Source: a virus
Virus record (IMG/VR): IMGVR_UViG_3300022902_000008
Reading direction: 5' to 3' (one strand)
Length of the DNA: 64,000 nucleotides
This document shows, one piece after another, positions 2 to 27,910 of the stretch (position 1 is its first letter; every line of letters begins with the position of its first letter). The position numbers and the translations under genes are program-made. The notes beneath the pieces were generated by a model, which was not told the origin of the DNA, did no database searches, and saw nothing but the letters and a program-made list of their open reading frames with translations.

Positions 2-106
2 ACAAAATCGTGGTATATAAATGATCAAAAATACTCAGAAAACAAATATTGGAAAAAAGTAGGCCTTGACAAGAAAGAAGAGTATTATAAGGGATTGAAC
101 AAATGA
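2..106 (+). CDS. 3' end of an upstream WYLNG-repeat family paralogue (partial)
   Basis: Frame 2 reads TKSWYINDQKYSENKYWKKVGLDKKEEYYKGLNK*, the same C-terminus as ORFs 12781/14360/15430/18062; ATGA overlap with ORF 103. Confidence 0.85.
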   Translation, partial: TKSWYINDQKYSENKYWKKVGLDKKEEYYKGLNK

Positions 107-1419
107 ACCTATTAGAAAAATATATAAGATTATTGTTGGTTGAATCAAGAGTTGATGATATAAAGATAAAATATCCTAATATTGCAAATAAAGTTGAATT
201 ATTATCTAAACAAGACCCTTCAGGCAATAATAAATACCTTGAATGGATGGTTAAGCAGGCTTCAACAGGCTATGGTTTAGATGATATTGTTGAGTTAGTA
301 AACTTATTTCATAAAAGCCAACAAAGGTTGAAAGGTAATAAGAAAGATCTTTATAGTTATAAAAATCTTAGTGAACTGTCAAAAGAGTTAGATAAGCTTC
401 CAAAAAAATCAAAGAGACAACAAAAAATAGAAATTTCTGAAGGTGCAGAAAAAATATATGAAGATGATGAAGCTTTGTTAATAAGGGTGGACACAAAGGA
501 TGCTGTTTGTAAATATGGTGCAGGAACAAAGTGGTGCATAACGAGTAAAAATGAAAGACACTTTGAAAAATATTCAGAAGAGGGCGTTATATTTTATTAT
601 ATGATTGCAAAAAATATAGAAAATGACGGCTCTGTATTAAACAAGATCGCCTTTGCTGTTTATACTGTTGGTTCAAATGTTGGAAAAGTTGACATATTTG
701 ACTCTGAAGATAATGAAAGAAATGTTGTTGGTGATATTGAACATTATCCACCATATGATATGTTGGTCGAAAAGGCATTGCATTTAATTGAAAGTGATTC
801 TAAAAAATTAGGTAAAAATTATTATGTTGATAAAATAGTAGAAAAAATTTATAATAATCCGAAACAAATTTTAGATTATAGTTATAACGATGCCGCAGTA
901 CACGATTTGTTAGAAGATAAGGACTTGCCAGAGGATATATTAGAAGTTGTTTTTAATAATATGGATTTTTTTCTTCACAATATAAACAAGTGGGTATCAC
1001 ATTCAAACAACACGCCTAGATTATTAACTTACTTAAGTGATGATAGACGATTTCCACCATCAATTCGCTCTTTAGTCGCTCTGCATGAGAACACCCCTGT
1101 TGATGTTTTGGGTAGGATGGTTTTTGATTATAATGATGCGACTCAAAGTTGGATGGTTGCTAGGTCAGCGGTTTTGAATGAAAGAACGCCCTATTATGCA
1201 TTGAAGAATGTCATAACTATGGGAAGTCAAAGTCACGATGTAATTTCTTACATGTTGCTAAGGGATGATTTAACATATGAGATAATAAAATTAATGTTAG
1301 AAAATAAATCAACAATGTATTTTATAAAGGATGTTTATGATTATGTAAAAGATCACAAACAAAGCTTTACAGAGGAAGAATATAATAAACTAATGCAAAC
1401 AATTGAATATAATTTTTAA
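103..1419 (+). CDS. Leader-bearing family protein (DPSGNN + CxYGxxTKWC core, C-terminal HEAT/LRV-like repeats); putative virion internal protein
   Basis: MNLLEKYIRLLLVE leader, DPSGNNKYLEWM, AVCKYGAGTKWC, C-terminal HENTPVDVL/NERTPYYAL repeats. Confidence 0.7.
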   Translation: MNLLEKYIRLLLVESRVDDIKIKYPNIANKVELLSKQDPSGNNKYLEWMVKQASTGYGLDDIVELVNLFHKSQQRLKGNKKDLYSYKNLSELSKELDKLPKKSKRQQKIEISEGAEKIYEDDEALLIRVDTKDAVCKYGAGTKWCITSKNERHFEKYSEEGVIFYYMIAKNIENDGSVLNKIAFAVYTVGSNVGKVDIFDSEDNERNVVGDIEHYPPYDMLVEKALHLIESDSKKLGKNYYVDKIVEKIYNNPKQILDYSYNDAAVHDLLEDKDLPEDILEVVFNNMDFFLHNINKWVSHSNNTPRLLTYLSDDRRFPPSIRSLVALHENTPVDVLGRMVFDYNDATQSWMVARSAVLNERTPYYALKNVITMGSQSHDVISYMLLRDDLTYEIIKLMLENKSTMYFIKDVYDYVKDHKQSFTEEEYNKLMQTIEYNF

Positions 1420-1436
1420 ATGGGAGAGTTAAATAA

Positions 1437-1685
1437 ATGCAACTAACTGAAGCACAAATTGAAAATCTAATTTTAAAAGTAATTACAGAGACTACAAATG
1501 GCAAAAAGAAAAAAGTTGCAAGCACACTTAGTCAAGTTGTCAACCTTCTATCAACCTATCAGTTATCATTCTCAGGGGAAGAAAAAAGAAACTTAATTAA
1601 AGCTCAAGGGTTAATTGAAGACATTGTTATTGCAATGGAGAGAGAGTTCAAAAATAACAAACGACAATTAACTTTAGCAGCTTAA
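1437..1685 (+). CDS. Small leader-bearing hypothetical protein
   Basis: GGGAG RBS; N-terminus MQLTEAQIENLILKVITE. Confidence 0.6.
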   Translation: MQLTEAQIENLILKVITETTNGKKKKVASTLSQVVNLLSTYQLSFSGEEKRNLIKAQGLIEDIVIAMEREFKNNKRQLTLAA

Positions 1686-1764
1686 AATATTATAGTGTTT
1701 TTCCTAAATTAAAATATAATTAATATATAGAGAGTAAATTTAAATTAATTGGAATACAAATTAA

Positions 1765-2364
1765 TTGGGTAGATTATTTATAACAAAAAGAGAGCTTCAG
1801 CTTATTTCTGATATTAACAAAGAGTTAATAAAAGATATCATTGGAGAAGAGATAATATATCATCCAGTATCAGAAGAGAAGACAAAAAAGGATGAGCTAT
1901 ATGATGAGGCTGAGGTAAAGGTAACAGAGACTCCAATAAATATAAGATGTTTGGTTAATTGGGAAGGTTCAACAACTGAAACAACAAATTTTGGTGTGGA
2001 TAAGAAATATTCAATTGAAGTTTATTTTCATGAAGAGGATCTTTCAGATAAGAACATAAAGTTGAGAGAGGGTGATTTTGTTGAATATGGAGCAATATTT
2101 TTTGAAGTTATAAATTTAGGACAACCAGACCTTATTTATGGACAAGCTGAGCACAAAGTTATGACAAAAGCTATTTGTAAGTCTGTTAGAAAAGGTCAGT
2201 TTTATAAAGATAGCCTGGAAACAGACGAAGAAAGGGATACGTTTACACAGATTGCTGGTGATGAAGATGAGGGTGACAGGAGAGAGTTGGTTGAAGGTGG
2301 GAAGATTGAGAGGTTGTTGGACCATGGTGTAACTTCACCGTTTACTGAAGATGATGATTATTGA
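1765..2364 (+). CDS. Neck/head-closure protein (T4 gp14-like)
   Basis: ELIKDIIGEEIIY...LYDE...FGVD...EGDFVEYG pattern of large-myophage neck proteins; lies upstream of tail genes. Confidence 0.65.
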   Translation: MGRLFITKRELQLISDINKELIKDIIGEEIIYHPVSEEKTKKDELYDEAEVKVTETPINIRCLVNWEGSTTETTNFGVDKKYSIEVYFHEEDLSDKNIKLREGDFVEYGAIFFEVINLGQPDLIYGQAEHKVMTKAICKSVRKGQFYKDSLETDEERDTFTQIAGDEDEGDRRELVEGGKIERLLDHGVTSPFTEDDDY

Positions 2365-3152
2365 TGGACATATTAGAACGATATATAAAAAACTTAATTG
2401 AGAGGGAGTTAGTTAATGGGCTGTATGGTAAATATTTGTTTGGAGAGCCGAGGGGTCTGCCAACAAAAGAAAATCCAGAAAAAGATGTTGATGAGGAAAG
2501 AAAGTTATATAAAGCTTTGTCTGATTGGGTGCAAGATCGTCGTATAAGTGCTAAGTTTTTGAAGCAGCTTGATAAGTTAAAAGATATGATGGATCAGGGT
2601 TTATATAAGGATGTTTTGAAGCCAAAGCTTGGAAAAGTTTATCGTGGTATGCAACTATCAACTACTTTGGCAGAGGAAATGTTTGGAAACAATATTTTTG
2701 ATGAAATAACTACTGAAAATCTAGTTGTTAAAATTGAAAATTATGTATATGAACCAAGAAAAATGATTTCTTCATGGTCTTATAAAAAAAGAACGGCATT
2801 AGGTTTTTCTGTTTATCTTTATAATAGATTTTATAGAGATATATATTCTAATAAAAATCTTGTTTATGTAATATATAAGGCCAATGTTGCTAATAATAAT
2901 TTTCTGTTTGATTATAGGCAAATTAAGCCATATAATTACTACTTAAGTGGTAAGTATAAGGGCAAATATAAAGAGTTCTTTCCTCATCATGTACATAGTT
3001 CGAATTTAATGAGACAAGAAAGTGAAGTTATTTCATTAGGGCCTATTAATTGTGAGGAGGTTTGTATTATCCCATATGGACTCATAAGTAATGTGGGCAA
3101 ACATATATCTAAAAAAGACGTTGCTGATCTGTTTAGGAGGGAGGTTAGATAG
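2361..3152 (+). CDS. Putative ADP-ribosyltransferase (R-S-E type) with leader
   Basis: VYRG ... ISSWS ... RQESEV catalytic motif order; MDILERYIKNLIERE leader. Confidence 0.65.
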   Translation: MMDILERYIKNLIERELVNGLYGKYLFGEPRGLPTKENPEKDVDEERKLYKALSDWVQDRRISAKFLKQLDKLKDMMDQGLYKDVLKPKLGKVYRGMQLSTTLAEEMFGNNIFDEITTENLVVKIENYVYEPRKMISSWSYKKRTALGFSVYLYNRFYRDIYSNKNLVYVIYKANVANNNFLFDYRQIKPYNYYLSGKYKGKYKEFFPHHVHSSNLMRQESEVISLGPINCEEVCIIPYGLISNVGKHISKKDVADLFRREVR

Positions 3153-4445
3153 ATGCGCTTATTAGAACAATATATAAAAAATCTGTTAGTTGAATCAAGA
3201 TTTGATGATGCGAAAAAAATTGATCCAGAGTTAAAGGAGCCAGGATTAGAATATTTGTCTAATAATGATCCGTCAGGAAATGACAAATACTTAATGTGGA
3301 TGGTAAGGCAAAAGAATTATCCTTTAATGGATAGGCTTGAGTTGGTCAAACAGTTTCATAGAAATATACAAAGGTTGCCAAAAGACAAAAGAGACATAAA
3401 CAAATTTGTTAGTATGGAAGAGCTAAGTGCGTTTCTTGACAATATAGCTATAACTTCAAAAAGGCAGCAAAAAAAAGATATTTCAAAAGGTGGCGTAGAA
3501 AGGGTTTATGAAGATGATAATGTATTAGCTTTCAGGGTAAACACAGAGGATGCTGCTTGTAAATATGGTGCAGGAACAAAATGGTGCATTTCAGCAAAAA
3601 GAGATAACAGGTTTATACAATATTCTATGGATAATGTTGTGTTTTATTTTTTACTTAACAAAGATCTTATAAGTAAAGCCCCTCATGATAAGTATGCAAA
3701 GGTTGCAATTGCTGTTGGTACTGATGGAAGGGATGAAACATTTGATGCAACTGATACAAAATTTCATGTATTAGATTTGTTATCAAAGGCCGAAACTCCT
3801 GAAATTGACAACTCTATATCAAAAGCATTAGCAAGAATTAATGTAAATTGGGCAAAAAATTCAAAGTCTGTTTGTAAAGAAAAGTTTATGGAAGAGATAA
3901 ATAATAATCCAAAAAATGTTATGAAATTAGGTACTTCATATAAAATACGATTAGCTAGTGATTTTAACACACAAGGTAATGTTTTAGAATATTTGGCAGG
4001 GTATGAAAGTTATCCTGAAGTTTTGTTGCCGTTAACAGGAAACCCATCACTGACAATAAAAGCTATGAAGTTGTTGTCAAATCATGATAATTTTCAAGTG
4101 AGGGCCGGGATTGCTATAAATGAAAAAACTCCAATTAATATCTTAAGAGAATTGTCTAAGGACGATCATGAGTATGTTAAGTTTCAGTTAATTAGAAACA
4201 TTGTTGCTATGAAAGATAAAGGGGTTATTGATATATTGTTAAGTGGTGAGTGTAGTAAGGTTAGGGAAGTGTTGGCGTGGTCTAGCTATACTCCAATGAA
4301 TGCATTATTTAGGCTAGCTTATTATGATAACAGTTTAATTGTTAGGGAACGGGCATTGAAACAAATTATTGAAAGAGATTATAAAGACGAATATGATAGA
4401 TATAAGGAAACACCAGAAAAAGAGAGGCTAGAAAAGTATGCCTAA
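3153..4445 (+). CDS. Leader-bearing family protein with HEAT/LRV-like repeats
   Basis: MRLLEQYIKNLLVE, DPSGNDKYLMWM, AACKYGAGTKWC, VRAGIAINEKTPINILRELSKD repeats. Confidence 0.7.
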   Translation: MRLLEQYIKNLLVESRFDDAKKIDPELKEPGLEYLSNNDPSGNDKYLMWMVRQKNYPLMDRLELVKQFHRNIQRLPKDKRDINKFVSMEELSAFLDNIAITSKRQQKKDISKGGVERVYEDDNVLAFRVNTEDAACKYGAGTKWCISAKRDNRFIQYSMDNVVFYFLLNKDLISKAPHDKYAKVAIAVGTDGRDETFDATDTKFHVLDLLSKAETPEIDNSISKALARINVNWAKNSKSVCKEKFMEEINNNPKNVMKLGTSYKIRLASDFNTQGNVLEYLAGYESYPEVLLPLTGNPSLTIKAMKLLSNHDNFQVRAGIAINEKTPINILRELSKDDHEYVKFQLIRNIVAMKDKGVIDILLSGECSKVREVLAWSSYTPMNALFRLAYYDNSLIVRERALKQIIERDYKDEYDRYKETPEKERLEKYA

Positions 4446-5595
4446 TAGAGAAGATTACTTACAAAGGGGAGAAAGCCCAACATTTTCAAACAAAAGGGTT
4501 AAAAATGAAAATGTAAAGGATCGTCCTGGTACAACAACAGAAGACTTTGTATTACCTTCATCAACAATAAAAGATATTGATAAAGCAATATATAATCATT
4601 TTGACGAGAGCTTAAATATATTTTTAAAGATTAACAAGGAAAGTAAAAAAGTTCCTGTCATGTTTGCAACTGGAGAAAGGTGGGCATTAGTAAGAAAAAG
4701 AAAGCCACTAAGAGATGGTGATGGTAGGTTAATACTTCCACTAATAACAGTTAGCAAGGGAGACACAGAAAAAACAGAAGACATGCATGGCATTCCAGGT
4801 GATTTTGGGGAGCTAATAATAAAAAGAAAGATAGGGGCAGACAATCCAAACTACCAAAACCTAATTAACCAAACAGGCTTAATTAACCAAAAGAATGTAC
4901 ACTTATCTGGCTCAACAGAAAGTGATCAAGAAGGATCAAGAAGAACACCTCCAGGAAAACCATTTAATGGAGTGTTGTATAAGGGAAAGCAAATCAATCA
5001 ATCAAAGTTAAACCCAAGAAATATATATGAGATATACTCAATGGGGTTCCCAGATTTTGTTACAATAACTTATGAGGTAATTGTATGGACACAATATTCA
5101 ACTCAAAACAATACAATTGTTGAAAGTGTGTTAAGGGGATGTGATTGGAAGAATTCAATAAAACTAGATACTGACAAAGGATATTATTATATTGCTATTC
5201 TAGAGAAAAATATTGTAAATCAATCAAACAAAGACGATTTTTCAGACACAGAAAGACTAGTTAAAAGTGTGTTTACTGTTAAGGTTATGGCTTATATTAT
5301 GGGTGCAACTGATAGTGAAAGTGTGCCAATAACAAAAATGGTGAATGCCCCTCAATTAAGGTTTGAAACTTTTGATGGCAACGGCTCTTCAACGTTATAT
5401 GATCCAGATAAGCTGGGTGATGATGTTGATCAAGTGGATGAGTTATCAAAGATGGGGAGAAAGGCAAATAGAAAGATACGGAAGAGAAAAGGTGGAGACT
5501 CATCACATAAAAATAAAAATAAAACAAAAAAAGCTTCAGAGAAAGTTTGGTTTTTTAATGATGTTGAGCAGCTTGACGACTTTTTTGCAAATTAA
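4438..5595 (+). CDS. Tail terminator/sheath stabiliser (T4 gp15-like)
   Basis: KVPVMFATGERW...LPLITV...PDFVTITYEVIVW pattern; immediately upstream of sheath genes. Confidence 0.6.
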   Translation: MPNREDYLQRGESPTFSNKRVKNENVKDRPGTTTEDFVLPSSTIKDIDKAIYNHFDESLNIFLKINKESKKVPVMFATGERWALVRKRKPLRDGDGRLILPLITVSKGDTEKTEDMHGIPGDFGELIIKRKIGADNPNYQNLINQTGLINQKNVHLSGSTESDQEGSRRTPPGKPFNGVLYKGKQINQSKLNPRNIYEIYSMGFPDFVTITYEVIVWTQYSTQNNTIVESVLRGCDWKNSIKLDTDKGYYYIAILEKNIVNQSNKDDFSDTERLVKSVFTVKVMAYIMGATDSESVPITKMVNAPQLRFETFDGNGSSTLYDPDKLGDDVDQVDELSKMGRKANRKIRKRKGGDSSHKNKNKTKKASEKVWFFNDVEQLDDFFAN

Positions 5596-8558: not shown

Positions 8559-8613
8559 TTAAATTAATTAGTGGAGATATTTAAATATATAATATTGATA
8601 GGAGATAATAATA

Positions 8614-12780: not shown

Positions 12781-13872
12781 ATGAACTTATTAGAAAAATA
12801 TATTAGATTATTGTTGGTTGAATCAAGAGTTGGTGATGTCAAAAAGAAGTATCCTGATTATGGTGGGTTTATACAAACAATGTCTGAGAACGATCCCTCT
12901 AATAACAATGCATATTTGATGTGGATGGTGGGACAATTTATTGATCATATAAATAATTATGAGTCAATAATAGACACAGTTAATAAGTTTCATAAAGTTA
13001 AGAATAAGCTCCCAAAAGATAAAAGAGATCTTTATAAGTATGAACATTTATATCAATTAAAAGATGAGATGGGCAAAGTGTCAGATGTGTCAAAACGTCA
13101 ACAAAAGAAGATTGTAAAGAAAAAGGGCGCAGACATTGTATTTGAGAATGATGAAGTTGTGGTATTAATCCCCAAGACGCATAAGGCCAGTTGTTATTAT
13201 GGAAGCAATACGAAGTGGTGTACAGCTTCAAAGGACAACTCAAGTCACTTTGATAACTATTTAGGAAAAGTAACGTTATATTACATTTTACCAAAAGATG
13301 GTGGGGAGAAGGTTGCGGTTGCAGTTGATGAAGATAATGATAAAAAGGTGTTTGATTCTAAGGATAATGGAAAGAATTTAAGTTGGCTGAAAGACAAGTT
13401 GCAACAATATAACATTCCAAGTTCGACATTTAAGTATGTTCTGTTGACGGGGATGATAGAAAGAAATGATGGAGCAAAAGAATGGTATTTAAATGGAGAA
13501 CTTCATCGAACTGATGGTCCCGCTTATGAACATCCTAATGAATCAAAAGAATGGTGGTTAAATGGGAGGCTTCATCGAACTGACGGACCTGCAATTGAAT
13601 ATTCTAATGGAACAAAACATTGGTATCTAAATGGAAAGTTGCATCGAGAAGATGGTCCTGCGCTTGAGTGGCCTGATGGATCAAAAGAATGGTATCTAAA
13701 TGGACAGCTTCATCGAGAAGATGGTCCTGCTATTGAATATTCTGACGGCCATAAAGAATGGTGGATAAATGGAAGGGAATATCTAGAAGATAAATATTGG
13801 CAAAAGGTAGGCCTTGACAAGAAAGAAGAGTATTATAACAATTACAACAATAAAAAACAAACTGACTCTTAA
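12781..13872 (+). CDS. Leader-bearing family protein with 4 x 23-aa WYLNG repeats
   Basis: Leader, DPSNNNAYLMWM, ASCYYGSNTKWC, WYLNGxxHRxDGPAxE repeats. Confidence 0.8.
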   Translation: MNLLEKYIRLLLVESRVGDVKKKYPDYGGFIQTMSENDPSNNNAYLMWMVGQFIDHINNYESIIDTVNKFHKVKNKLPKDKRDLYKYEHLYQLKDEMGKVSDVSKRQQKKIVKKKGADIVFENDEVVVLIPKTHKASCYYGSNTKWCTASKDNSSHFDNYLGKVTLYYILPKDGGEKVAVAVDEDNDKKVFDSKDNGKNLSWLKDKLQQYNIPSSTFKYVLLTGMIERNDGAKEWYLNGELHRTDGPAYEHPNESKEWWLNGRLHRTDGPAIEYSNGTKHWYLNGKLHREDGPALEWPDGSKEWYLNGQLHREDGPAIEYSDGHKEWWINGREYLEDKYWQKVGLDKKEEYYNNYNNKKQTDS

Positions 13873-13921: not shown

Positions 13922-14359
13922 ATGAAAAATTTAAATTCGTTCATAGAGCTTGTTTTATTAGAAGGTATGGATGAGTACTACAAGGACAACACAGGCTTTT
14001 TAAAGCGAAATGTAAAGGATTTTTTGAACAAATATTCAAATAATATTGATAAATATTTTTTATATAAATCTGATCGACATTTGGAATATGCATTAAATAA
14101 TATAAGAGATCTATACGAAACCTTTTCAAACATGGTTGATGATAAATATTTGGATTTTGATGAAACATCGTTTTTACCAACAAAGGATATTGATTATGAT
14201 TATTTGCACAACCTTTCAGAGAACATGATTTCTTTTATAAATAAGATTGGTGACAAGGTTGAAGGTGGTGGGGATTCTATTGCTCATATTAAAGCTGGAA
14301 TTGAGAAGATCAAGTTTGTTATTGTTGCAATTGAGAGGGTGTTGGGTGAGAGTGAATAA
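13922..14359 (+). CDS. Leader-bearing hypothetical protein
   Basis: MKNLNSFIELVLLE-G N-terminus. Confidence 0.6.
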   Translation: MKNLNSFIELVLLEGMDEYYKDNTGFLKRNVKDFLNKYSNNIDKYFLYKSDRHLEYALNNIRDLYETFSNMVDDKYLDFDETSFLPTKDIDYDYLHNLSENMISFINKIGDKVEGGGDSIAHIKAGIEKIKFVIVAIERVLGESE

Positions 14360-15433
14360 GTGAACTTATTAGAAAAATACATTAGATTGTTGTTGGTTGA
14401 GGGAAGGTTGGAGGATGTTCGGAATAAATATCTTAACAACAAAGATCTTGTTAACAATTTGTCTAGTCAAGATCCGTCAGGCAACAACAAATATCTTTTA
14501 TGGATGACTCAACAAGTTGTTGATGGTGGGGAAAATGAAGCGAGTGTTGTTGATTTGGTTAACAAGTTTCATAAAAATCAACAAAGATTGAAAGGTGATA
14601 AGAGGGATTTATATAAATATAACAGCTTAAGTGATCTTGGGAAAGAGTTGAGTAAAGTTACAGATAAATCAAAAAGTCAACAAAAGAAGGCTATAAAAAA
14701 AGAAGGCGTAGACATTGTATTTGAAAGCGATAAGGTGTTGATTGTAATCCCCAAGACTCATAAGGCAAGTTGTTATTATGGGAGCAACACCAGTTGGTGT
14801 ACAGCTTCAAGGAAAAACTTAAATTATTTTGAGAGTTATTTGGGAAAAGTTACATTATATTACATATTACCGAAGGATGGTGGGGAGAAGATTGCAGTTG
14901 CAGTTTACAAGAATAATGATAAAAAGATATTTGATTCTGGGGATAATAAGAAGGGTTTAAGTTGGCTGGAAAACAAGTTGCAACAATATAACATTCCAAG
15001 TTCGATATTTAAGTATATTTTACTTGCTAGAATGATAAGAAAGGATGATGGGACAATATTATGGTATCTAAATGGACAGCTTCATCAAACTGACGGTCCT
15101 GCTGTTGAACATCCTGATGGAACAAAAAGATGGTATTTGAGTGGAAAGCGTCATCGAACTGACGGCCCTGCTATTGAATATTCTGACGGCCATAAATCAT
15201 GGTATTTAAATGGAGTACGTCATCGAACTGATGGTCCTGCTTATGAACATCCTGATGGAATAAAAACATGGTGGATAAATGGAAAGCGTCATCGAGAAGA
15301 TGGTCCTGCTGTTGAATATTCTGACGGCCATAAAGAATGGTGGTTAAATGGCATGGAATATCCAGAAGATAAATACTGGCAAAAGGTAGGTCTTGACAAG
15401 AAAGAAGAGTATTATAAGGGATTAAAAAAATAA
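14360..15433 (+). CDS. Leader-bearing family protein with 4 WYLNG repeats
   Basis: GTG start; paralogous to 12781 and 18062. Confidence 0.8.
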   Translation: MNLLEKYIRLLLVEGRLEDVRNKYLNNKDLVNNLSSQDPSGNNKYLLWMTQQVVDGGENEASVVDLVNKFHKNQQRLKGDKRDLYKYNSLSDLGKELSKVTDKSKSQQKKAIKKEGVDIVFESDKVLIVIPKTHKASCYYGSNTSWCTASRKNLNYFESYLGKVTLYYILPKDGGEKIAVAVYKNNDKKIFDSGDNKKGLSWLENKLQQYNIPSSIFKYILLARMIRKDDGTILWYLNGQLHQTDGPAVEHPDGTKRWYLSGKRHRTDGPAIEYSDGHKSWYLNGVRHRTDGPAYEHPDGIKTWWINGKRHREDGPAVEYSDGHKEWWLNGMEYPEDKYWQKVGLDKKEEYYKGLKK

Positions 15434-15504
15434 ACTTATTAGAAAAATATATTAGATTATTATTAGTTGAATCAAGGGTTGATGATGTTAAAAAAAGATA
15501 TCCT
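15299..15504 (+). repeat. 206-bp direct repeat, copy 1 (spans gene junction)
   Basis: Matches 19007-19212 with 3 mismatches by manual alignment. Confidence 0.9.
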
Positions 15505-16641
15505 GATTGTAGTATAATTGAAATGATGTCTAGAAGAGATCCATCAGGTAATAACAAATATTTAATGTGGATGGTGGGACAATTTGCTGATCATTTAAAT
15601 GACTATGAATCAATAATAGACACAGTTAACAAGTTTCATAAAGTTAAGAATAAACTCCCAAAAGACAAAAGAGATCTTTATAAGTATGAACATTTACATC
15701 AATTAAAGGATGAGATGGGTAAAGTGTCAGATGTGTCAAAAAGGCAACAAAAGAAGATTATAAAAAAAGAAGGTGCAGATACTGTGTTTGAGAATGACAA
15801 GGTTGCAGTTGTGATCCCCAAGACTCACAAGGCAAGTTGTTATTATGGAAGCAACACCAAATGGTGTACAGCTTCAAAGGATGATTCAAGTCACTTTGAC
15901 AATTATTTAGGAAAAGTCACATTATATTATATATTACCGAAGGATGGTGGGGAGAAGGTTGCAGTTGCAGTTGATGAGCATAATGACAAAGAGATATTTG
16001 ATTCTGGGGATAATGGAAAAAGGTTATGGTGGCTGGAAGGTAAGTTGCAACAATATAACATTCCAAGTTCAACATTCAAGTATATTCCACTTACGGGGAT
16101 GATAAGAAAGGATGATGGGACAATATTGTGGTATCTAAATGGCTATTTTCATCGAATTGATGGCCCTGCTTATGAACACCCTAATGGAAAAAAACGATGG
16201 TATCTAAATGGAAAGCTTCATCGAGAAGATGGTCCTGCTATTGAACGTCCTAATGGAACAAAATATTGGTTTCTAAATGGAAAGCTTCATCGAAAAGATG
16301 GTCCTGCTATTGAAGACTCTGATGAATCAAAAGAATGGTACTTAAATGGAAAGCGTCATCGAACTGACGGCCCCGCTTATGAACATCCTGACGGAACAAA
16401 ATCATGGTATCTAAATGGAAAACTTCATCGAGAAGATGGTCCTGCAATTGAACGGGCTGATGGAACAAAACATTGGTATTTAAATGGAAGGAAACATCGA
16501 AAAGATGGTCCTGCTGTTGAAGATTCTAATGGCCATAAAGAATGGTGGTTAAATGGCATGGAATATCCAGAAGATAAATACTGGCAAAAGGTAGGTCTTG
16601 ACAAGAAAGAAGAGTATTATAAGAATGACAATAAAAAATAA
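15430..16641 (+). CDS. Leader-bearing family protein with 6 WYLNG repeats; ancestral ATG mutated to ATA
   Basis: In-frame ATA-AAC-TTA-TTA-GAA (INLLEKYIRLLLVE) begins 31 codons before the ATG at 15523. Confidence 0.75.
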   Translation: MNLLEKYIRLLLVESRVDDVKKRYPDCSIIEMMSRRDPSGNNKYLMWMVGQFADHLNDYESIIDTVNKFHKVKNKLPKDKRDLYKYEHLHQLKDEMGKVSDVSKRQQKKIIKKEGADTVFENDKVAVVIPKTHKASCYYGSNTKWCTASKDDSSHFDNYLGKVTLYYILPKDGGEKVAVAVDEHNDKEIFDSGDNGKRLWWLEGKLQQYNIPSSTFKYIPLTGMIRKDDGTILWYLNGYFHRIDGPAYEHPNGKKRWYLNGKLHREDGPAIERPNGTKYWFLNGKLHRKDGPAIEDSDESKEWYLNGKRHRTDGPAYEHPDGTKSWYLNGKLHREDGPAIERADGTKHWYLNGRKHRKDGPAVEDSNGHKEWWLNGMEYPEDKYWQKVGLDKKEEYYKNDNKK

Positions 16642-16903
16642 AATATGTGAAATATGTAATAGTTTTTCTAATGGCCTTGACAAGCATCATATTCAGTCAA
16701 GGTGTTTTGGGGGAGAAAATAAAAAATATAATATTGTAAATATTTGTTGTAATTGTCATAGAAATGTTCATTTAGGAAAAGTTATTATTGAAGGTAGGTT
16801 TAATAGCACAAAAGGAAATGTTGTTGTTTGGAGATATGAGGGTGATGATAAAAAAATTGTAAGTGAAGATCCAAAAGTACATATAATAGGAGAAAAAAAA
16901 TGA
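16625..16903 (+). CDS. Small HNH endonuclease
   Basis: CEIC...DKHHI...GG...NIVNICCNCHRNVH; ATG at 16625 preferred over TTG 16598. Confidence 0.8.
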   Translation: MTIKNKICEICNSFSNGLDKHHIQSRCFGGENKKYNIVNICCNCHRNVHLGKVIIEGRFNSTKGNVVVWRYEGDDKKIVSEDPKVHIIGEKK

Positions 16904-17220
16904 ATAAGAAAATAAAGTTATCTGAAAGCAGAGTAAGGGCTGTTATAAAAAAAATTATAAAAGAAGAGTTTGATGATTACGGTGATGATGGTGATGATTA
17001 TGGTGATGCAATTGAACAGCTTTTAAATATTAAAGACAAAATGAAAGAGTTGGTTGAAGAAGCAAAACATATTATTCGTAATGCTGATGATGATAGGGGG
17101 ATATATGAGAGGGCGAGAAGGCAGTGGGCCGCACATATTGAAGGTGCGCTAGACAAGGAAAATGACTGGATGGGTGGCTCAATGCATACAATGCAAGATA
17201 CAATTGATGAACTTGAATAA
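16900..17220 (+). CDS. Leader-bearing acidic hypothetical protein
   Basis: KIKLSESRVRAVIKKIIKEE N-terminus; GGAG RBS. Confidence 0.65.
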   Translation: MNKKIKLSESRVRAVIKKIIKEEFDDYGDDGDDYGDAIEQLLNIKDKMKELVEEAKHIIRNADDDRGIYERARRQWAAHIEGALDKENDWMGGSMHTMQDTIDELE

Positions 17221-17244: not shown

Positions 17245-17745
17245 ATGAAAGTTAAAATGAAAAAAAAGCAGTTAAGGAAGATTATAAAAGAAGAGACAAA
17301 AAAGTGCTTAAAAGAGTATGGAGAGTATAAAGATCCTGAGAAGGTTGCGAGTGCTTTAGAGGGGATATCTTCAGAATTAGATCTAATAATGACAGCCTTC
17401 CCAGAAGGTGTTGGTGGAAGAGAGGGTAGGTTGGCTGATGATATTGAGGCTCTTCATAATTTAGCAAAAAGAGCACAAATGACTGCAATGGATGTTGCTC
17501 ATAGAAAAATTGCAGAAAATAAAAAAAAAGATCTAAGTGAGATATCAAAACCATATGGTGGAGAAAAGCCTGACTTTGATTCATGGCCACAAGAAAGGAT
17601 AAAAAAATATTGGGAAACTTTGTCAAAAAAACATAAAACTTTTGAGAGTAAAGTAGAGGCAGTATCATCTTTTGCTGACAACCCTGAAGCTTTTATTGCG
17701 GCTCTTGAAAAAAGAGCAACTAACGGATGGCCTGCGGAAAAATAG
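17245..17745 (+). CDS. Leader-bearing hypothetical protein
   Basis: MKKKQLRKIIKEETKKCLKE N-terminus. Confidence 0.65.
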   Translation: MKVKMKKKQLRKIIKEETKKCLKEYGEYKDPEKVASALEGISSELDLIMTAFPEGVGGREGRLADDIEALHNLAKRAQMTAMDVAHRKIAENKKKDLSEISKPYGGEKPDFDSWPQERIKKYWETLSKKHKTFESKVEAVSSFADNPEAFIAALEKRATNGWPAEK

Positions 17746-17767: not shown

Positions 17768-18058
17768 ATGAATAATAATAAATTAGAATTAATTATTGAA
17801 AGTTTGTTATTAGAAGAGATTGGTTCTCCAACAATTGCAGAGTTAATGCAATCAAAAATACACAAAGCATATACAGTAGTTGCTGATGATCTTGCATCTT
17901 TAGGTTATTTTACAACTGAAGAGAGGATATCATTATCTTCAGCAATATCAAATGCGTTAAAAGAATTTTCTGAAGAGGCAAAAAGAAATAAAGCTTTTGA
18001 TAAAAAAGTAAGACCAGAACATTTAGATAAGTTGGTTATGAAAAGAGGGAAAGAATAA
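17768..18058 (+). CDS. Leader-bearing hypothetical protein
   Basis: KLELIIESLLLEE N-terminus; GGGAG RBS. Confidence 0.6.
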   Translation: MNNNKLELIIESLLLEEIGSPTIAELMQSKIHKAYTVVADDLASLGYFTTEERISLSSAISNALKEFSEEAKRNKAFDKKVRPEHLDKLVMKRGKE

Positions 18059-18061
18059 AAG

Positions 18062-19141
18062 GTGAACTTATTAGAAAAATATATTAGATTATTATTGATT
18101 GAGGGAAGGTTAGAAGATGTTATAAAGAAATATTCTAATTATCATACTGTTCCCTCAATAAAGCTTTTGGCACAAAAAGATCCTTCTGGAAATAACAAAT
18201 ATTTAATGTGGATGATGGACCAATATGATAAAAACAATAATGATTATGAGTTAATAATTGATCTAGTTAACAAATTTTATAAAAATCAACAAAGGTTGAA
18301 GGGTGACAAGAGGGATTTATATAAATATAACAGCTTAAGTGATCTTGAAAGTGAATTAAGTAAAGTTCCAGATAAATCAAAGAGACAGCAAAAAAAGGCC
18401 GTAAAGAGGGAAGGTGCAGATATCGTATTTGAGAATGATGAAGTTGTGGTATTAATTCCGAAGACTCATGAGGCCAGTTGTTATTATGGAAGTAATACCA
18501 AATGGTGTACAGCATCAAAAGATGATTCGAGTTACTTTGATGATTATTTGGAAGAAGTCACATTATATTACATATTACCGAAGGATGGTGGGGAGAAGGT
18601 TGCAGTTGCAGTTGATGAGCATAATAACAAAGAGATATTTGATTCTGGGGATAATGGAGAAAGGTTAAGTTGGTTGGAAGACAAATTGCAACAATATAAC
18701 ATTTCAAGTTCGATATTTAAGTATATTCCGCTTACGGGGGTGATAAAGAGGGGCGACGGGGGAAGGCATTGGTTTCTAAATGGCAAGCGTCATCGAATTG
18801 GTGGCCCTGCAATAGTTCGGCCTAATGGTAGAAAAGAATGGTATTTAAATGGAAAGCGTCATAGAACTGATGGCCCTGCTGTTGAACGGGCTGATGGATA
18901 TAAAGCATGGCTTCTAAATGGAAAGCGCCATAGAACTGATGGCCCTGCAATAGTTCGGCCTAATGGGACAAAAGCATGGTATCTAAATGGAAAGCGTCAT
19001 CGAACCGATGGTCCTGCTGTTGAATATTCTGACGGCCATAAAGAATGGTGGTTAAATGGCATGGAATATCCAGAAGATAAATACTGGCAAAAGGTAGGTC
19101 TTGACAAGAAAGAAGAGTATTATAAGGGATTAAAAAAATGA
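18062..19141 (+). CDS. Leader-bearing family protein with 4 WYLNG repeats
   Basis: GTG start; paralogous to 14360. Confidence 0.8.
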   Translation: MNLLEKYIRLLLIEGRLEDVIKKYSNYHTVPSIKLLAQKDPSGNNKYLMWMMDQYDKNNNDYELIIDLVNKFYKNQQRLKGDKRDLYKYNSLSDLESELSKVPDKSKRQQKKAVKREGADIVFENDEVVVLIPKTHEASCYYGSNTKWCTASKDDSSYFDDYLEEVTLYYILPKDGGEKVAVAVDEHNNKEIFDSGDNGERLSWLEDKLQQYNISSSIFKYIPLTGVIKRGDGGRHWFLNGKRHRIGGPAIVRPNGRKEWYLNGKRHRTDGPAVERADGYKAWLLNGKRHRTDGPAIVRPNGTKAWYLNGKRHRTDGPAVEYSDGHKEWWLNGMEYPEDKYWQKVGLDKKEEYYKGLKK

Positions 19142-19212
19142 ACTTATTAGAAAAATATATTAGATTATTATTAATTGAATCAAGGGTTGACGATGTTAAA
19201 AAAAGATATCCT
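19007..19212 (+). repeat. 206-bp direct repeat, copy 2
   Basis: Matches 15299-15504. Confidence 0.9.
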
Positions 19213-20445
19213 AATTATGGTAGTGAAATTGAAATGATGTCTAAACAAGATCCTTCAGGCAATAACAAATATTTAATGTGGATGGCAGATCAATTTATTA
19301 AATATTCAAACAATTATGAATCAATAGTAAACATAATTAATAAGTTTCATAAGGTTAAAAATAGGTTGCCAAAAGATAAAAGAGATATTAATAAATATAA
19401 GCATTTATACCAATTGAAGGATGAGTTGTTAAAAGTTCCGGTAGGTTCTAAAAGACAGAAAAGGATAGAGATTTCCAAGGGGGCAGAAAAAATATATGAA
19501 GATGAAGAGTTTATTGTATTGAGGGTAAACACAAAAGAAGCTGCTTGTAAATACGGATCAGAAACAAAATGGTGTATTTCAGGTAAAGAAGATAATAGGT
19601 TTATAGAATATTCTAGGCGAGATAATGTATTTTTCTATATCATAAAAAAAGGTTTTTCAAAAAATGATCATGATCCATTGTATAAAATTGCAGTTGCAAC
19701 AAATAAAGATGGTGACTTTGAAATATTTGACGCATGGGACGATACCATCTCTCCAGCCAAAGTAAGTGATTATTTGGGAGAGAAAAGATATGATGTAATA
19801 AATAATAGGATGCTTAATAGTGTAACAGAAGAACCAAGCTCAAAATACAACAAAGAACTTGAAAACGGAATAAAAAATAAAGATCCAGAAATATTAAAAA
19901 CTATACAAGAAAATGACTTGGATTCAAATTCAAGTATAATATTATCACTTGTTAACAAAAAAGAACTAAGGAGAACAGTGTTTCTAAATGTTTCTTATGA
20001 TCAATTGATTGTGATGGTAAGTGAACATAATAATGCTAGTCATGATTTTACAAATGAAGACTTAATTGCAATTATAGATAAATATTATGGAAAAAACTAT
20101 AGTAAGGATAATAATGGTTGGAATTTAAGGCTTGCCTTTAAAATTGTCAATGTTTATTTGGGTAAGACTGATAGAGAAGTAGTTACTATGAGGTTAGTAA
20201 AACTTCCAATAGAACAAGTAAGAGAGAAGATCGCTTTAAGACCAAATTTGCCTGAAAATATTGCTTTAATGTTGGCTGAAGATGAGAGTAAGGATGTTAA
20301 AATGAGCTTATCATTAATGACTGGCTGGCTATCTGTATTTAAAAAGTTAATGAAAGATAAAGATGAGAAAGTGGTGCAATATGCTAAAGAAAATTTAAAT
20401 AGTTTAAATAAAAGAAGAAGTGAGATGGGATTATCAGAAATATAA
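19138..20445 (+). CDS. Leader-bearing family protein with HEAT/LRV-like C-terminus
   Basis: Leader, DPSGNNKYLMWM, AACKYGSETKWC, VREKIALRPNLPENIALMLAEDE. Confidence 0.75.
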   Translation: MNLLEKYIRLLLIESRVDDVKKRYPNYGSEIEMMSKQDPSGNNKYLMWMADQFIKYSNNYESIVNIINKFHKVKNRLPKDKRDINKYKHLYQLKDELLKVPVGSKRQKRIEISKGAEKIYEDEEFIVLRVNTKEAACKYGSETKWCISGKEDNRFIEYSRRDNVFFYIIKKGFSKNDHDPLYKIAVATNKDGDFEIFDAWDDTISPAKVSDYLGEKRYDVINNRMLNSVTEEPSSKYNKELENGIKNKDPEILKTIQENDLDSNSSIILSLVNKKELRRTVFLNVSYDQLIVMVSEHNNASHDFTNEDLIAIIDKYYGKNYSKDNNGWNLRLAFKIVNVYLGKTDREVVTMRLVKLPIEQVREKIALRPNLPENIALMLAEDESKDVKMSLSLMTGWLSVFKKLMKDKDEKVVQYAKENLNSLNKRRSEMGLSEI

Positions 20446-20683: not shown

Positions 20684-20804
20684 AATAATCATAATATTAA
20701 AAAAAAACAGTAAAAAGAACTTAGTAAAATATATTTAATTATGATCATGAACCACTCATGATTGATAATTGTTTTGTGGAAAATTAATACGGAGAAAAAA
20801 AATA

Positions 20805-21305
20805 ATGGCAGAAACACTTAATGTAACTGGCGATTCGGCTTCAATGTTGGCCAATAAATTTGAGCCAAAAAGGAAATTTAGATGGGTTCTGGAAATTGAT
20901 GGAATTGATGCATTCTTGCTGAAATCAGCACAAAGGCCCTCGTTCACTTTTGAGGAGACAAAAATTCAGTGGCTTAATGTGGAAAGGAAACTTTCTGGGA
21001 GGGCCACTGTTGGTGATATGAGCATTACGCTTTATGACCCTATTGCACCCTCTGGAGCACAACAAGTGATGGAATGGGTAAGGCTTAATTGGGAGGCTAT
21101 TACAGGCCGTAGCGGCTACGCAGATTTTTACAAAAGATCCTTAGTAGTCAAGATGTTAGACCCTGTTGGGACAGTCGTAGAACGATGGGACTGTAGAGGC
21201 TGCTGGATTTCTGATATCAATTTCGGAGATTTAGCGTATGACTCATCTGACCCTGCTGACATTACACTCACGGTTAAGATGGATCAGGCGATAAACCAAT
21301 TTTAG
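20805..21305 (+). CDS. Tail tube protein (gp19-like)
   Basis: FEPKRKFRW...LYDPIAPSGAQQVMEW...GYADFYK...LDPVG...FGDLAYD; ATG 20805 with GGAG RBS. Confidence 0.9.
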   Translation: MAETLNVTGDSASMLANKFEPKRKFRWVLEIDGIDAFLLKSAQRPSFTFEETKIQWLNVERKLSGRATVGDMSITLYDPIAPSGAQQVMEWVRLNWEAITGRSGYADFYKRSLVVKMLDPVGTVVERWDCRGCWISDINFGDLAYDSSDPADITLTVKMDQAINQF

Positions 21306-21443: not shown

Positions 21444-22502
21444 ATGGCTGTAGTAAAAATAATAAAAATTGTTAAAAATGGTGGAAAAGATAAGCTTGGT
21501 AGAAAAAAACCACCTAAAAGAAAAATAATATTAAGATGTGATTATTGTGACAAAGAGCGGGTTGTTGGCTTTTTAAACAAACTCATAAAAAAAAATAAAC
21601 ACTATTGTAATGCTAGTTGCTTTGCCAGAAGTAATGATAGAAAGGAGAGAAGAAAGCCACAAATTTTTATATGCCCTATTTGCAATGAAATTTTTAAATT
21701 TAAGGCTTTTTTTAAAAAACATTTAAGTGACAAGCATAATAAAGATATTAATGAAGTTAATTATGTTAATAAATATGTTGATTCAAAAAAGACAATAGAC
21801 GAACTTTATGTTGAACATATTTTAAGTGGGGAATGGTTGTTGTGTGCTTGTGGCTGTGGTGAAAAAATACCTAACCCAAGGAGGGGTCAAAAATATATTG
21901 CTGGTCATGCAATAAGGGTTCACAACAATTGGGGGCATAATCCGAGGGCGTTAATGAAAAGCCAGGAGGCTCGACGAAAAGCGATTAGGGAGGGTCGGTT
22001 TGTGCCTTGGAATAAAGGCTTGACGAAAGAGGTTGATGAGCGTATGAATGTTATAGCAAAAAAAGTTTCAAAAGCATTTACCAATGAGCGTAAAAAAGCA
22101 GCAGCAAAGAATATGCGGCAAGTTTGGGCAGATGGTAAAATAGTAATTAAATATGGAAAGGAAACTTCTCAATGGAAAGGTGGTGTTAGTTATGTAACAA
22201 GTAAGTTATATTCTTTAACGAGATTGTATTCTGTATGGAAAAAGCCCATTTTAGAAAAAGATGGTTTTGTTTGCCAGGAATGTAAAAGCACTAAAAATCT
22301 ACAAGTGCATCATGATGATATTACATTATCAGAAATAATAATGTTAATTATAAATCAATTTAAAAACTATGACCCAACTATTGATGGTGATAAAAGAAAG
22401 TTAACTGATTTAGTTATTAATTATCACCTAGAAAATAATGTGTCGGGCATTACACTATGTAAGGAATGCCACAAAAAACTTCATCCTAGTTATAATTTTT
22501 AG
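21444..22502 (+). CDS. HNH homing endonuclease with Zn fingers and NUMOD-like segment
   Basis: CDYC, CPIC..H, CACGCG, PWNKG, WKGG, CQEC...VHH...TLCKECHKKLH. Confidence 0.85.
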   Translation: MAVVKIIKIVKNGGKDKLGRKKPPKRKIILRCDYCDKERVVGFLNKLIKKNKHYCNASCFARSNDRKERRKPQIFICPICNEIFKFKAFFKKHLSDKHNKDINEVNYVNKYVDSKKTIDELYVEHILSGEWLLCACGCGEKIPNPRRGQKYIAGHAIRVHNNWGHNPRALMKSQEARRKAIREGRFVPWNKGLTKEVDERMNVIAKKVSKAFTNERKKAAAKNMRQVWADGKIVIKYGKETSQWKGGVSYVTSKLYSLTRLYSVWKKPILEKDGFVCQECKSTKNLQVHHDDITLSEIIMLIINQFKNYDPTIDGDKRKLTDLVINYHLENNVSGITLCKECHKKLHPSYNF

Positions 22503-24156: not shown

Positions 24157-24165
24157 TGAATTTAA

Positions 24166-24725: not shown

Positions 24726-24728
24726 CAA

Positions 24729-24950: not shown

Positions 24951-24980
24951 CAAATGAACCTTGTTGTGGTATATTGTTGT
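24945..24980 (+). promoter_or_regulatory. sigma70-like early promoter; 36-bp exact repeat of 46145-46180
   Basis: TTAACA-17 bp-TATATT, TGTG extension. Confidence 0.8.
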
Positions 24981-24998
24981 TATTGAAAGGGAGGTTTC

Positions 24999-25692: not shown

Positions 25693-25925
25693 CCTTTCAA
25701 GAAAAGTGGGCAATATGTTCAGACGATGTTCGAGATTGGATGTTAGATAATCTTGATGACTTAATAACAGAGAAGTCTTGTTTGCTTCATAATAACAAGT
25801 GGCTTAAATATAAATATTATTCAGGCCCAATAAGGATGTTGGAACATAAAAAAAATATTGGTATTGTTGTTGTGGAAGGGATCGATAAGCAAGTTTTTGG
25901 TATAACTGAGGATTGCTTTGAGTGA
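25689..25925 (+). CDS. Small YxG family protein
   Basis: YSGPIRM; GGAGG RBS. Confidence 0.6.
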   Translation: MTFQEKWAICSDDVRDWMLDNLDDLITEKSCLLHNNKWLKYKYYSGPIRMLEHKKNIGIVVVEGIDKQVFGITEDCFE

Positions 25926-26384
25926 GTATGAAGTCGTATATGACGTTATGTTCCCCAACGAGATAAGTAAATATAGGGTTGCTAATGATATAAGAATAGT
26001 TGACTTTACTGTTAAGGGTGAGTGGATAAGGGGGGTAGTTGGATGAAGCATTATTGTGGAAGCATATGGTTTGATGGATATAAAAACAAAATAATTGAAC
26101 AAGTTGGTCATAGCAATTATATTTTGTATGTTGATTATTGTGGAATTATTAAGATTTATCATAGAAAACAAAAGGCAAGTACGCCAGGGGGCTTTTTTCT
26201 TTCCTTTCCTCATAAAGTTAATTTGAGGTCAATTAATAAAGAATATTTAAATTCTGAAAAGGCTCTCACACAATGGTTTAAACAGACTACAGAGATCTAT
26301 CATGTGAGTGAAAATAACTTTAGGTTAAACTTCCCTAATTTAAATTTTGATTTAATGGTGAGTAGAATGTTGTATAATTGTTAA
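25918..26384 (+). pseudogene. YxG family gene split by a frameshift in a G6 run
   Basis: ORF 25918-26046 and ORF 26022-26384 join by -1 at G6 (26030-26035) to give KGEWIRGGSWMKHYCGSIW. Confidence 0.5.
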
Positions 26385-26626
26385 ATTCTTTTTAGCTTAT
26401 TTGGCAGCATATCTCTAAATTGTCCACTAGTCATTGGGTCTTTATTTTCTTTTTGTCCCTTTGTTTCTTTTATTTCTTTTGCTACCCTATTAATAAACCA
26501 TATTCTCTTAGGTATAGATAGTTTGTAGGCATTTTCGTAAGAAAATCCACAATAATACATAAGCAAGAATATTTGATCCAGAAATAGTTCTTTAGCTTCT
26601 GGAGAGTTGAGGCCAAAAAAATTCAA
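26381..26626 (-). CDS. Baseplate hub/tail assembly protein (gp51-like), possibly a frameshift extension of the upstream chaperone
   Basis: QIFLLMYYCGFSYENAYKLSIPKRIWF; overlaps end of 26592-27467 at a T7 run. Confidence 0.6.
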   Translation of the reverse strand: MNFFGLNSPEAKELFLDQIFLLMYYCGFSYENAYKLSIPKRIWFINRVAKEIKETKGQKENKDPMTSGQFRDMLPNKLKRI

Positions 26627-27467
26627 CCCCTAATGGGATCGTCACCTCCGAGTCTTCCCCACAATCAGGGCAAGTTGCAAACTGCCTCATTTCAATTCCT
26701 GGCTCGTTGTCATCAATAAAGTTTCTTAATGCCAAAGAATCTCTTGCAGGTAAATGTCTAATGATATTTGCAATTTTTGATCTATCTGTAACTCCATCAA
26801 AATACTTGACTGACTTAATTAACCTTGCGCTAACTAAAGAGTCAATTGATGTCTTTAGTTTTTTCTTTTTTCTGTCTGATTGCTTTGTTAGCTCTTCCTC
26901 GTCAGCACCAGTTAAGAAGCTGAAATGTACTTCTTTTTTAAGGCCAGGAAGCATAAAAGAGAAGATGTTTTCGTTTTCTTCTATGGGGTCAATTTTAAAC
27001 CGCTTGATTGGGAGATCATTAAGATCAAATTCATTTTTGTATTTATGATCACAAACTGGACAAGTAATTTCTACTGGATATTCTGCACCATAACCAGTAA
27101 TTCTAATTGAGGTCATAAGAGCGTTTTTATCGCCTGCAAGAAGGGAGTCAGGATCAATTGATTTATTAGTTACACAACTTTTGATTAGATATGTTAGCAC
27201 TGTTCCTTGTTTAATAAGTGCTCTAGAAGTTAGAATATCTTCTTCTTTTGCAGTCATTGATTTAATTTCAACAAACTCAGCTTTGCGTAAAGGATGGTTT
27301 TCAGAATATACCAGACCATTTGATGGAAGCGGCACTAGCTCTACAGGAACTTCAAAACCAAGGTCATCTTCCATTTTTTTTTGTGACATTGAAGACATCA
27401 TATTTTGCATTCCTGCTTGAACGTCTTCTTTACTTTTGAAAACTTCATTTCTACTTTCTTTTGACAT
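26592..27467 (-). CDS. Baseplate hub assembly chaperone (T4 gp26-like)
   Basis: LPSNG...MTAKEEDIL...GDKNAL...CPVC...CPDCG...FFWP. Confidence 0.8.
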   Translation of the reverse strand: MSKESRNEVFKSKEDVQAGMQNMMSSMSQKKMEDDLGFEVPVELVPLPSNGLVYSENHPLRKAEFVEIKSMTAKEEDILTSRALIKQGTVLTYLIKSCVTNKSIDPDSLLAGDKNALMTSIRITGYGAEYPVEITCPVCDHKYKNEFDLNDLPIKRFKIDPIEENENIFSFMLPGLKKEVHFSFLTGADEEELTKQSDRKKKKLKTSIDSLVSARLIKSVKYFDGVTDRSKIANIIRHLPARDSLALRNFIDDNEPGIEMRQFATCPDCGEDSEVTIPLGVEFFWPQLSRS

Positions 27468-27565
27468 TTTAGCCTCCGATTTATTTAAAAACTTTGTGTT
27501 ATTAAATATGCTTTAAGTTATTTTTTTTCTGTTAAAATTAATATAGGTATGTAAAAAATATATAT

Positions 27566-27910
27566 TTAATGATTATAGCTTATGTCTAGCTTACTTTTGT
27601 TTTTGTTAGAAAAGTTCATCATAAATTCACATCTCCCGCCAGTTTTACCTTTCGCCCATCCAGAAATAAACTGAGAATTAGGTACGTTTTCAATTTCAGC
27701 TTTAATATATTTTAGACTATCTTGCATTCTATTTTCTGCAACTTGTTTCATAAAATCACTAGTTTCAATCCAATTAATTAATGCGTCATAATCTCCAAAT
27801 TCAACATCTTTTGGCTTTGGTATACTAGCAGGATGATCAATCCAACTCTCTAATATGCTTTTTATTTCTTCCTTTATGATTTTTTTAAGTTTAGTTTCTG
27901 TTAGTTTCAT
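27566..27910 (-). CDS. Leader-bearing hypothetical protein
   Basis: MKLTETKLKKIIKEEIKSILE-S; AGGAG RBS. Confidence 0.65.
   Translation of the reverse strand: MKLTETKLKKIIKEEIKSILESWIDHPASIPKPKDVEFGDYDALINWIETSDFMKQVAENRMQDSLKYIKAEIENVPNSQFISGWAKGKTGGRCEFMMNFSNKNKSKLDISYNH

Follow-up and report, generated by a model that had tools for sequence, protein, structure and literature searches.

Why would seven proteins whose bodies have drifted far apart keep nearly the same N-terminus? The question is raised by a 64,000-nt stretch of the viral record IMGVR_UViG_3300022902_000008 (the whole of which is called the window here), a fragment of a T4-related myophage with a G+C content of about 32%, of which 76 open reading frames (ORFs) were compared. 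Seven paralogs, starting at 103, 3153, 12781, 14360, 15430, 18062 and 19138, share the N-terminus MNLLEKYIRLLL[VI]E-[SG]-R, which takes the variant form MRLLEQYIKNLLVE-SR at 3153, and their bodies show merely 29-36% identity to that of the first member. A previous sequence-only reading had taken such N-termini, on these seven and on seven unrelated ORFs, for a capsid-targeting leader of the T4 kind. With moderate confidence, we propose that the leaders are propeptides cut by a prohead protease and act like the T4 capsid-targeting sequences. This reading covers seven to eight family members, an ADP-ribosyltransferase (ART)-like gene at 2364 and an acidic protein encoded behind the protease gene of a relative. 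The family genes of the window are as follows.

1..102, (+): C-terminal end of an eighth family member, running off the window
103..1419, (+): family member 1, 438 aa; leader codons 103-144 (MNLLEKYIRLLLVE, then S); HEAT-like C-terminus
3153..4445, (+): family member 2, 430 aa; leader 3153-3194 (MRLLEQYIKNLLVE, then S)
12781..13872, (+): family member 3, 363 aa; leader 12781-12822; C-terminal repeats MORN-like
14360..15433, (+): family member 4, 357 aa, GTG start; leader 14360-14401
15430..16641, (+): family member 5; the open frame with the leader begins at 15430, ATA standing in for ATG; first ATG at 15523, past the leader
18062..19141, (+): family member 6, 359 aa, GTG start; leader 18062-18103
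19138..20445, (+): family member 7, 435 aa; leader 19138-19179

The leader is under selection as a peptide, since pairwise differences among the seven paralogs are predominantly synonymous in codons 2-14 (64 synonymous versus 34 non-synonymous), while the reverse holds for codons 15-26 (41 versus 116). A hidden Markov model (HMM) of the 16-residue family leader, run against the 76 ORFs, recovered seven of seven members (E <= 5.6e-11) and, as the sole other match, the gene at 2364 (E 0.0034). The remaining six ORFs to which the leader had been ascribed, all of them small, were not matched at their N-termini (all E > 3). The scan therefore separates two tiers, a true shared leader on the family and on 2364, and a looser motif on the six small ORFs. 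Every leader string quoted in the sequence-only reading is present at the start of its ORF. All seven family members carry the leader as proposed; the member at 15430, however, opens with ATA and had been counted from about 15523, where the longest ATG-initiated ORF lacks it. At this gene, ATA stands where the paralogs carry ATG or GTG and overlaps the stop codon of the gene upstream, and the G-to-A change at the start also makes that stop TAA from TGA (TGA as at 19138). The 31 codons of leader plus linker are still open and conserved, and the arrangement suggests that either translation re-initiates at a non-AUG codon or the leader has been lost very recently. A Sec-type signal peptide was ruled out by reading the sequences, in which charged residues break the hydrophobic stretch.

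The second bearer of the true leader encodes a protein of a different kind.

2364..3152, (+): ADP-ribosyltransferase-like cargo, 262 aa; family-type leader 2364-2408 (MDILERYIKNLIERE)

Together with three homologs from protein databases and one on contig L025, it makes up a set of five sequences, all of which begin with M(N/D)(L/I)LE(K/R/N)YI.. (one reads MNLLEKYIRLLLTEE). When the family was aligned to this set with hhalign, the alignment was confined to leader columns 1-17, showing one leader on at least two unrelated bodies. Invariant in all five sequences are R94 (VYRG), S136-S137-W and E219-x-E221. The catalytic pattern of R-S-E ADP-ribosyltransferases is R / S-x-S / E-x-E, and we take R94, S136-S137 and E219-x-E221 to fit it. 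The AlphaFold2 (AF2) model of the 2364 product is of moderate quality (predicted local distance difference test (pLDDT) 60), and its residues 1-39 fall below 50, so that the leader is predicted not to pack against the core. Foldseek with this model placed pertussis S1, Vis and cholera toxin A1 on top, albeit weakly (best E 0.013). VIA structure comparison returned ART-fold chains at Z 4.2-6.6, all below 8, the identity to cholera toxin/LT A1 reaching 24% across some 100 residues; 48 of the 50 VIA rows are presumably ART-fold proteins, in part judged by title. At the sequence level, Pfam gave no ART family for the five members at E <= 10, a profile search of the PDB gave no match to an ART, and hhalign against T4 Alt gave a probability of 0.07. 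Because these comparisons were all negative, we call the product ART-like and do not place it in a named family. ART-like genes also occur on the variant contig L024 (60,868 bp), at 103-840 and 8387-9190. The protein database assigns the 2364-type proteins P0270, P0271 and P0272 to contigs whose length reaches 60,868 bp, that of L024's own contig, and the start of P0272 resembles the product of L024 8387-9190; the variant phage, too, therefore seems to have several copies of the ART-like cargo.

Capsid-targeting sequences and their processing by gp21 are textbook knowledge for T4, and the principle itself is not new. The N-termini in the T4 record, MKTYQEFIAE (IPII/IPIII), MELITE (Alt), MNEPQLLIE (gp21), MLKEQLIAE (gp22), MEGLIE (gp67), MLLIPE (gp68), MAKINELLRE (gp24) and MIDKDYIAE (Inh), are by their sequence of the same kind as the window leaders. 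The hypothetical T4 protein gp61.1 (L035 18966-19130) begins with MKTFKEFIKE, close to the targeting sequences of IPI, IPII and IPIII. According to PMC9026906, gp21 cuts at L/I-x-E, T4 propeptides comprise 7-65 residues (10-19 in the internal proteins), the protease carries a site of its own (LIE-9), and Alt is an ADP-ribosyltransferase of the prohead core that gp21 processes and that leaves the head together with the DNA. The same article reports that targeting and processing depend on different residues, with Asp at position 10 stopping cleavage and not targeting. Encapsidation of foreign proteins by a targeting sequence has precedent in T4 (PMC9026906 and PMC3012670).

As in T4 (IPI, IPII, IPIII, Alt, gp67, gp68, gp22, gp24), a short N-terminal leader closing in L/I-x-E is found in the window (the T4 leaders of the internal proteins, Alt and gp24 have 7-20 residues), and one leader is spread across unrelated cargoes, including, with gene 2364, an ADP-ribosyltransferase-like cargo reminiscent of Alt. 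Relatives have a head module of the T4 type with portal, protease and Gp23 capsid genes, and the relative's protease has such a site near its own N-terminus, as gp21 does. Unlike in T4, the leaders are longer (13-23 versus 6-19 residues) and of another sequence; they sit on a family, at least eight copies strong, whose E-[GS]-R-x-x-D junction is fixed, and the cargoes, known here from sequence alone, have no detectable homology to the internal proteins or to Alt. A similar situation has been described for other giant phages, which we set beside the window family by published description only: in PMC5694885, the diverged paralogs SPN3US gp53/gp54 and the phiKZ gp93 family likewise keep an identical N-terminus with a prohead-protease site (in gp53/gp54 the N-terminal 15 residues are identical and hold the protease sites), and the SPN3US/phiKZ protease is related to gp21 and likewise cleaves behind Glu. 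There, however, the motif is A/S/G-x-E and not L/I-x-E, the propeptides often exceed 100 residues, and the phages belong to another lineage.

The genes surrounding the leader in related phages are in line with a role in the head. Peptidase_S77 is present in four of five related records. The viral contigs G001 and G002 encode a family member 68% identical to that at 12781, and in both a T4-type terminase and a T4-type portal are followed by three ORFs and a family member of 612 aa (MSILLENIDMLLVE-SR); then come two small ORFs (..LKDILKEE.. and ..FANFLKEE..), a single other ORF, a second family member (357 aa) and Peptidase_S77. Directly after the protease come a 77-aa acidic protein starting MNLLEKYIENIIKEE, which has MNLLEKYI in common with the leader, and a 107-aa protein (..RRLIKE..). 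The loose motif, a regular expression PHI-[LI]-x-E (PHI, hydrophobic) within residues 2-25, occurs in G002, outside the window, in 8 of 11 ORFs of the portal-to-protease block, the protease itself among them, versus 4 of 47 elsewhere (Fisher p 3e-5). Hits of a position-specific scoring matrix (PSSM) built from the window leaders were enriched at N-termini, with 4/55 N-termini versus 9/799 internal windows in G002, and 13/166 versus 29/1826 in the distant relative G005. A metagenome scan with the first 52 nt of the window yielded two contigs that have just 127 nt in common with the window. In L025, the first 110 nt are the end of G002 and nt 4044-4170 are window 1-127, both at 100%; since this contig overlaps both, the window probably continues such a head module, but the overlaps are junctions at assembly repeats and fall short of proof. 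On the variant contig L024, an ART-like gene and a family gene precede the gene of a 761-aa acidic protein at the position of gp22, and a Gp23 capsid gene (E 3e-74) follows. The very acidic 761-aa protein (2464-4749), directly upstream of the Gp23 gene, contains two copies of the family C-subdomain (E 3e-8); its repeats, residues 343-441 and 453-551, are identical and lack the two Cys of the C-subdomain. Aligning the capsid protein of L024 with T4 gp23 left its propeptide site undefined. A degenerate DNA pattern for MNLLEKYI, which by design misses the GTG-start genes of the relatives, gave 26 loci and no further cargoes in the viral contigs: 23 of these lie in frames of at most 43 residues, and three in longer ORFs that lack the rest of the leader.

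Far more proteins than those of the window share the family domain. At E <= 0.001, 6371 clusters (50% identity) match its N-domain (residues 1-225), 2058 of them at E <= 1e-10; Pfam has no family for it, and the PHROG matches are of unknown function. Among 150 representatives, 95 have a junction x-[GSA]-[RK] within residues 1-45, and in these P1 is Glu in 77, P3 is Leu/Ile in 76 and P4 is Leu/Ile/Val in 70. P1 lies at positions 4-44 (median 16; 3 to 43 residues before the junction), and such a hydrophobic extension of variable length, closing in L-x-E, fits a propeptide. Cultured phages with the family are the PA5oct-like phages, SCTP-2, Atu_ph07 and CcrBL9; EST35_0205, the homolog in PA5oct, bears the annotation 'structural protein, ESI-MS/MS', which marks it as a virion protein. 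Full-text searches and passages of PMC7824862 yielded no description of the leader or of the protein family. With the family domain, Foldseek gave no match at E <= 0.001, and a VIA-wide comparison peaked at Z 6.3 (designed helical repeats) and 5.5 (p32-like chains), giving no convincing fold.

For this phage we infer, by analogy with T4, cleavage, a targeting role and a location inside the head. The leaders would be N-terminal propeptides of prohead-core and internal head proteins, whose amphipathic helix of about 13-23 residues would keep the precursor on the scaffolding core during prohead assembly. A T4 gp21-type serine protease (Peptidase_S77) would then cut after the Glu of PHI-[L/I]-x-E and release the mature protein within the capsid, and some of the mature proteins would probably be ejected along with the DNA. 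That the leader is a 'packaging code' usable for foreign cargo, as the sequence-only reading had it, is suggested by experiments in T4 only.

A number of observations weigh against a cleaved targeting propeptide. R16 and D19 are as invariant as E14, and in the AF2 model of the family domain a single helix, residues 3-23, runs unbroken through E14 (pLDDT ~78-84), with residues 3-104 aligning as one helical bundle (VIA). Internal tandem units keep ..LLVEGR.. (P0124, P0128, P0166), and the junction may therefore belong to the fold; either the junction is also structural, or the long proteins would be polyproteins. The family domain also occurs in tandem or internally in proteins of 1000-2155 aa, maybe polyproteins cut into several pieces. 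The T4 analogy is supported by the motif, the neighbouring protease of relatives, the unrelated bodies, the ART-like cargo and the virion annotation of the PA5oct homolog, but the window itself supplies no protease for it: none of the window ORFs scanned codes for a prohead protease, a portal or a major capsid protein, and tblastn of the relative's protease against the 64-kb window gave nothing (best E 5.4). The link from window to head module consists of exact contig-end overlaps of just 110 and 127 nt, and in G005 the loose motif is not concentrated in the head block (4/12 versus 24/161 elsewhere, p 0.11). Neither passages of the PA5oct paper nor two of its supplement files hold anything on processing of the homolog. 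In T4, the loose motif matches 8 of 11 known head-core genes and also about 20 of about 223 other ORFs (~9%; 150 of 169 kb); with its predictive value near 30% there, leader identity and gene context must carry the argument. Lastly, no homologs of the six small ORFs could be detected in G002 or G005, and of the three candidates from a homolog search with the ORF at 27566-27910 (-) the only true one was that ORF itself.

The structural observations would be accounted for if the leader were the first helix of the helical subdomain of the family and were not removed, the small ORFs being unrelated helical proteins whose K/I/E/L-rich N-termini look alike since the genome is AT-rich. The unbroken helix within one bundle, the joint invariance of E14, R16 and D19 and the leader retained in internal repeated units all speak for this, as do the six small ORFs missed by the leader HMM and a motif background of 6-7%, of ~9% in other T4 ORFs and of 15% outside the G005 head block. 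We nevertheless regard it as unlikely, as the same leader occurs on non-homologous bodies, the number of residues preceding the junction varies from 3 to 43, the leader of the ART-like protein is modelled detached, and leader-like N-termini cluster around the G002 protease. Less probable still, in our judgement, is an uncleaved helix that binds the core or scaffold or oligomerises, recruiting proteins to the prohead or another late assembly. The helix is amphipathic: the helical hydrophobic moment exceeds the 90th percentile in 11 of the 14 N-termini for which amphipathicity had been claimed, the claim failing for 1437 (72nd percentile), 13922 (68th) and 17768 (39th). Moreover, targeting is separable from processing in T4 (Asp at position 10; PMC9026906), and P1 is not Glu in 18 of the 95 family representatives. 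The prevalence of Glu at P1 (77/95) and of L/I at P3 (76/95), however, is what a cleavage site needs and goes beyond the need of a binding helix. Conservation of the DNA or RNA in place of the peptide (a recombination or gene-conversion tract, or a translation-start element) is highly improbable: the leader DNA of the paralogs is similar and common 5' ends could mediate swapping of gene bodies, yet synonymous differences prevail in the leader, the reverse of the next 12 codons, and the junction is kept among representatives at 50% identity, far past DNA similarity.

If the leaders are indeed cleaved targeting propeptides, sequence alone would mark the set of proteins with which an uncultured marine jumbo phage fills its head and which it probably injects, and this set would take in a multi-copy family of no known function as well as an ADP-ribosyltransferase-like enzyme. 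A family represented by thousands of metagenomic clusters would thereby gain a first clue to its function, and the T4 principle, which has already served to bring foreign proteins into T4 heads, would reach a distant lineage with a different leader. More speculatively, and with considerable doubt, the leader and its L-x-E-[GS]-R junction might be a general encapsidation and processing module of a very large undescribed family of internal, probably ejected, effectors in marine T4-related jumbo phages. Such effectors would have exchangeable C-terminal binding repeats, would also come as polyproteins cut into several effectors in the head by the prohead protease, and would share a module that would have been copied onto other cargoes such as an ADP-ribosyltransferase.

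The second tier consists of the six small ORFs, to which we add one extra candidate, at 1765, that was absent from the earlier list.

1437..1685, (+): small ORF, 82 aa; loose leader 1437-1490 (MQLTEAQIENLILKVITE, then T); leave-one-out PSSM 6.4
1765..2364, (+): ORF, 199 aa, TTG start; ELIKDIIGEE at residues 20-29, PSSM 9.1
13922..14359, (+): small ORF, 145 aa; leader-like 13922-13963 (MKNLNSFIELVLLE, then G), resembling the family junction; weak, leave-one-out PSSM 0.9
16900..17220, (+): small acidic ORF, 106 aa; leader-like 16900-16968 (..VRAVIKKIIKEE, then F)
17245..17745, (+): helical ORF, 166 aa; leader-like 17245-17295 (..KQLRKIIKEE, then T)
17768..18058, (+): small ORF, 96 aa, the weakest candidate; 17768-17818 (MNNNKLELIIESLLLEE, then I)
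27566..27910, (-): orphan ORF, 114 aa, by the baseplate hub gene; leader-like 27866-27910 (MKLTETKLKKIIKEE, then I); second site SILE, then S

These six share only the loose motif, so that of the seven unrelated bearers first proposed 2364 alone has the true shared leader. The motif was found in 16 of the 76 ORFs versus 43 of 678 internal 24-residue windows (6.3%); 13 of the 16 are claimed genes, and 2364 misses it. It occurs in 6 of 13 non-family genes of the cluster (binomial p 7e-5, a generous value because the expression was chosen after seeing the data). Outside the cluster, 3 of 56 ORFs match (49534, 52666, 56002), which is the background rate and bears out the claimed absence of the leader from sheath, tube, replication and early genes. 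The simpler [LI]-x-E within residues 2-25 is present in all seven family members and all seven other claimed ORFs, on a background of 22.7% of internal windows. When the N-terminal 24-mers of all 76 ORFs were compared pairwise (null 99th percentile 26, 99.9th 39.9), links emerged between 17245 and 27566c (51), 16900 and 27566c (39), 16900 and 17245 (37), 1437 and 16900 (33), and 13922 and the family (32-33); ORF 17768 had no such link to other claimed ORFs. The bodies of the small ORFs are mutually dissimilar save for a weak match between 16900 and 17245 (E 0.005), and neither Pfam nor PHROGs returned anything for them. For 17245, the Protein Atlas gave no usable match by features and, by structure, helical look-alikes with TM <= 0.50. 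Taken together, the sequence comparisons are suggestive, as the six exceed chance as a set; singly they are unproven, and whether each is the bearer of a processed leader may be put at roughly even odds. A T4 late-promoter-like TATAAATA lies at 28019-28026 (-), about 110 nt upstream of 27566-27910; a scan for TATAAATA gave 21 sites versus 12 expected, not systematically upstream of leader genes.

No near-identical relative of the window was found among 50,697 phage records (megablast, 25 kb). Its other assigned genes comprise tail and baseplate functions, two HNH endonucleases among the late genes and, after the tape measure, the replication genes for DNA polymerase A, gp32, RecA-like protein (intein), DnaB, ribonucleotide reductase (intein) and Hsp70.

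5718-8558 and 8614-11553: two tandem long tail-sheath paralogs, 946 and 979 aa (Pfam/PHROGs)
16598-16903: HNH endonuclease gene among late genes (Pfam and PHROG)
20769-21305: gp19 tail tube
21444-22502: HNH endonuclease gene among late genes (PHROG)
26592-27467, (-): T4_baseplate hub protein
28399-32829: tape measure
44358-46019: RecA-like gene with Intein_splicing domain
57701-60565: ribonucleotide reductase large-subunit gene with Intein_splicing domain

A different conserved N-terminus, MK[VI]R[QT]GFVSNSS[ST], is shared by the adjacent ORFs 51713, 52069 and 52666 (51713-53169), which scored 64-78 in the N-terminal comparison.

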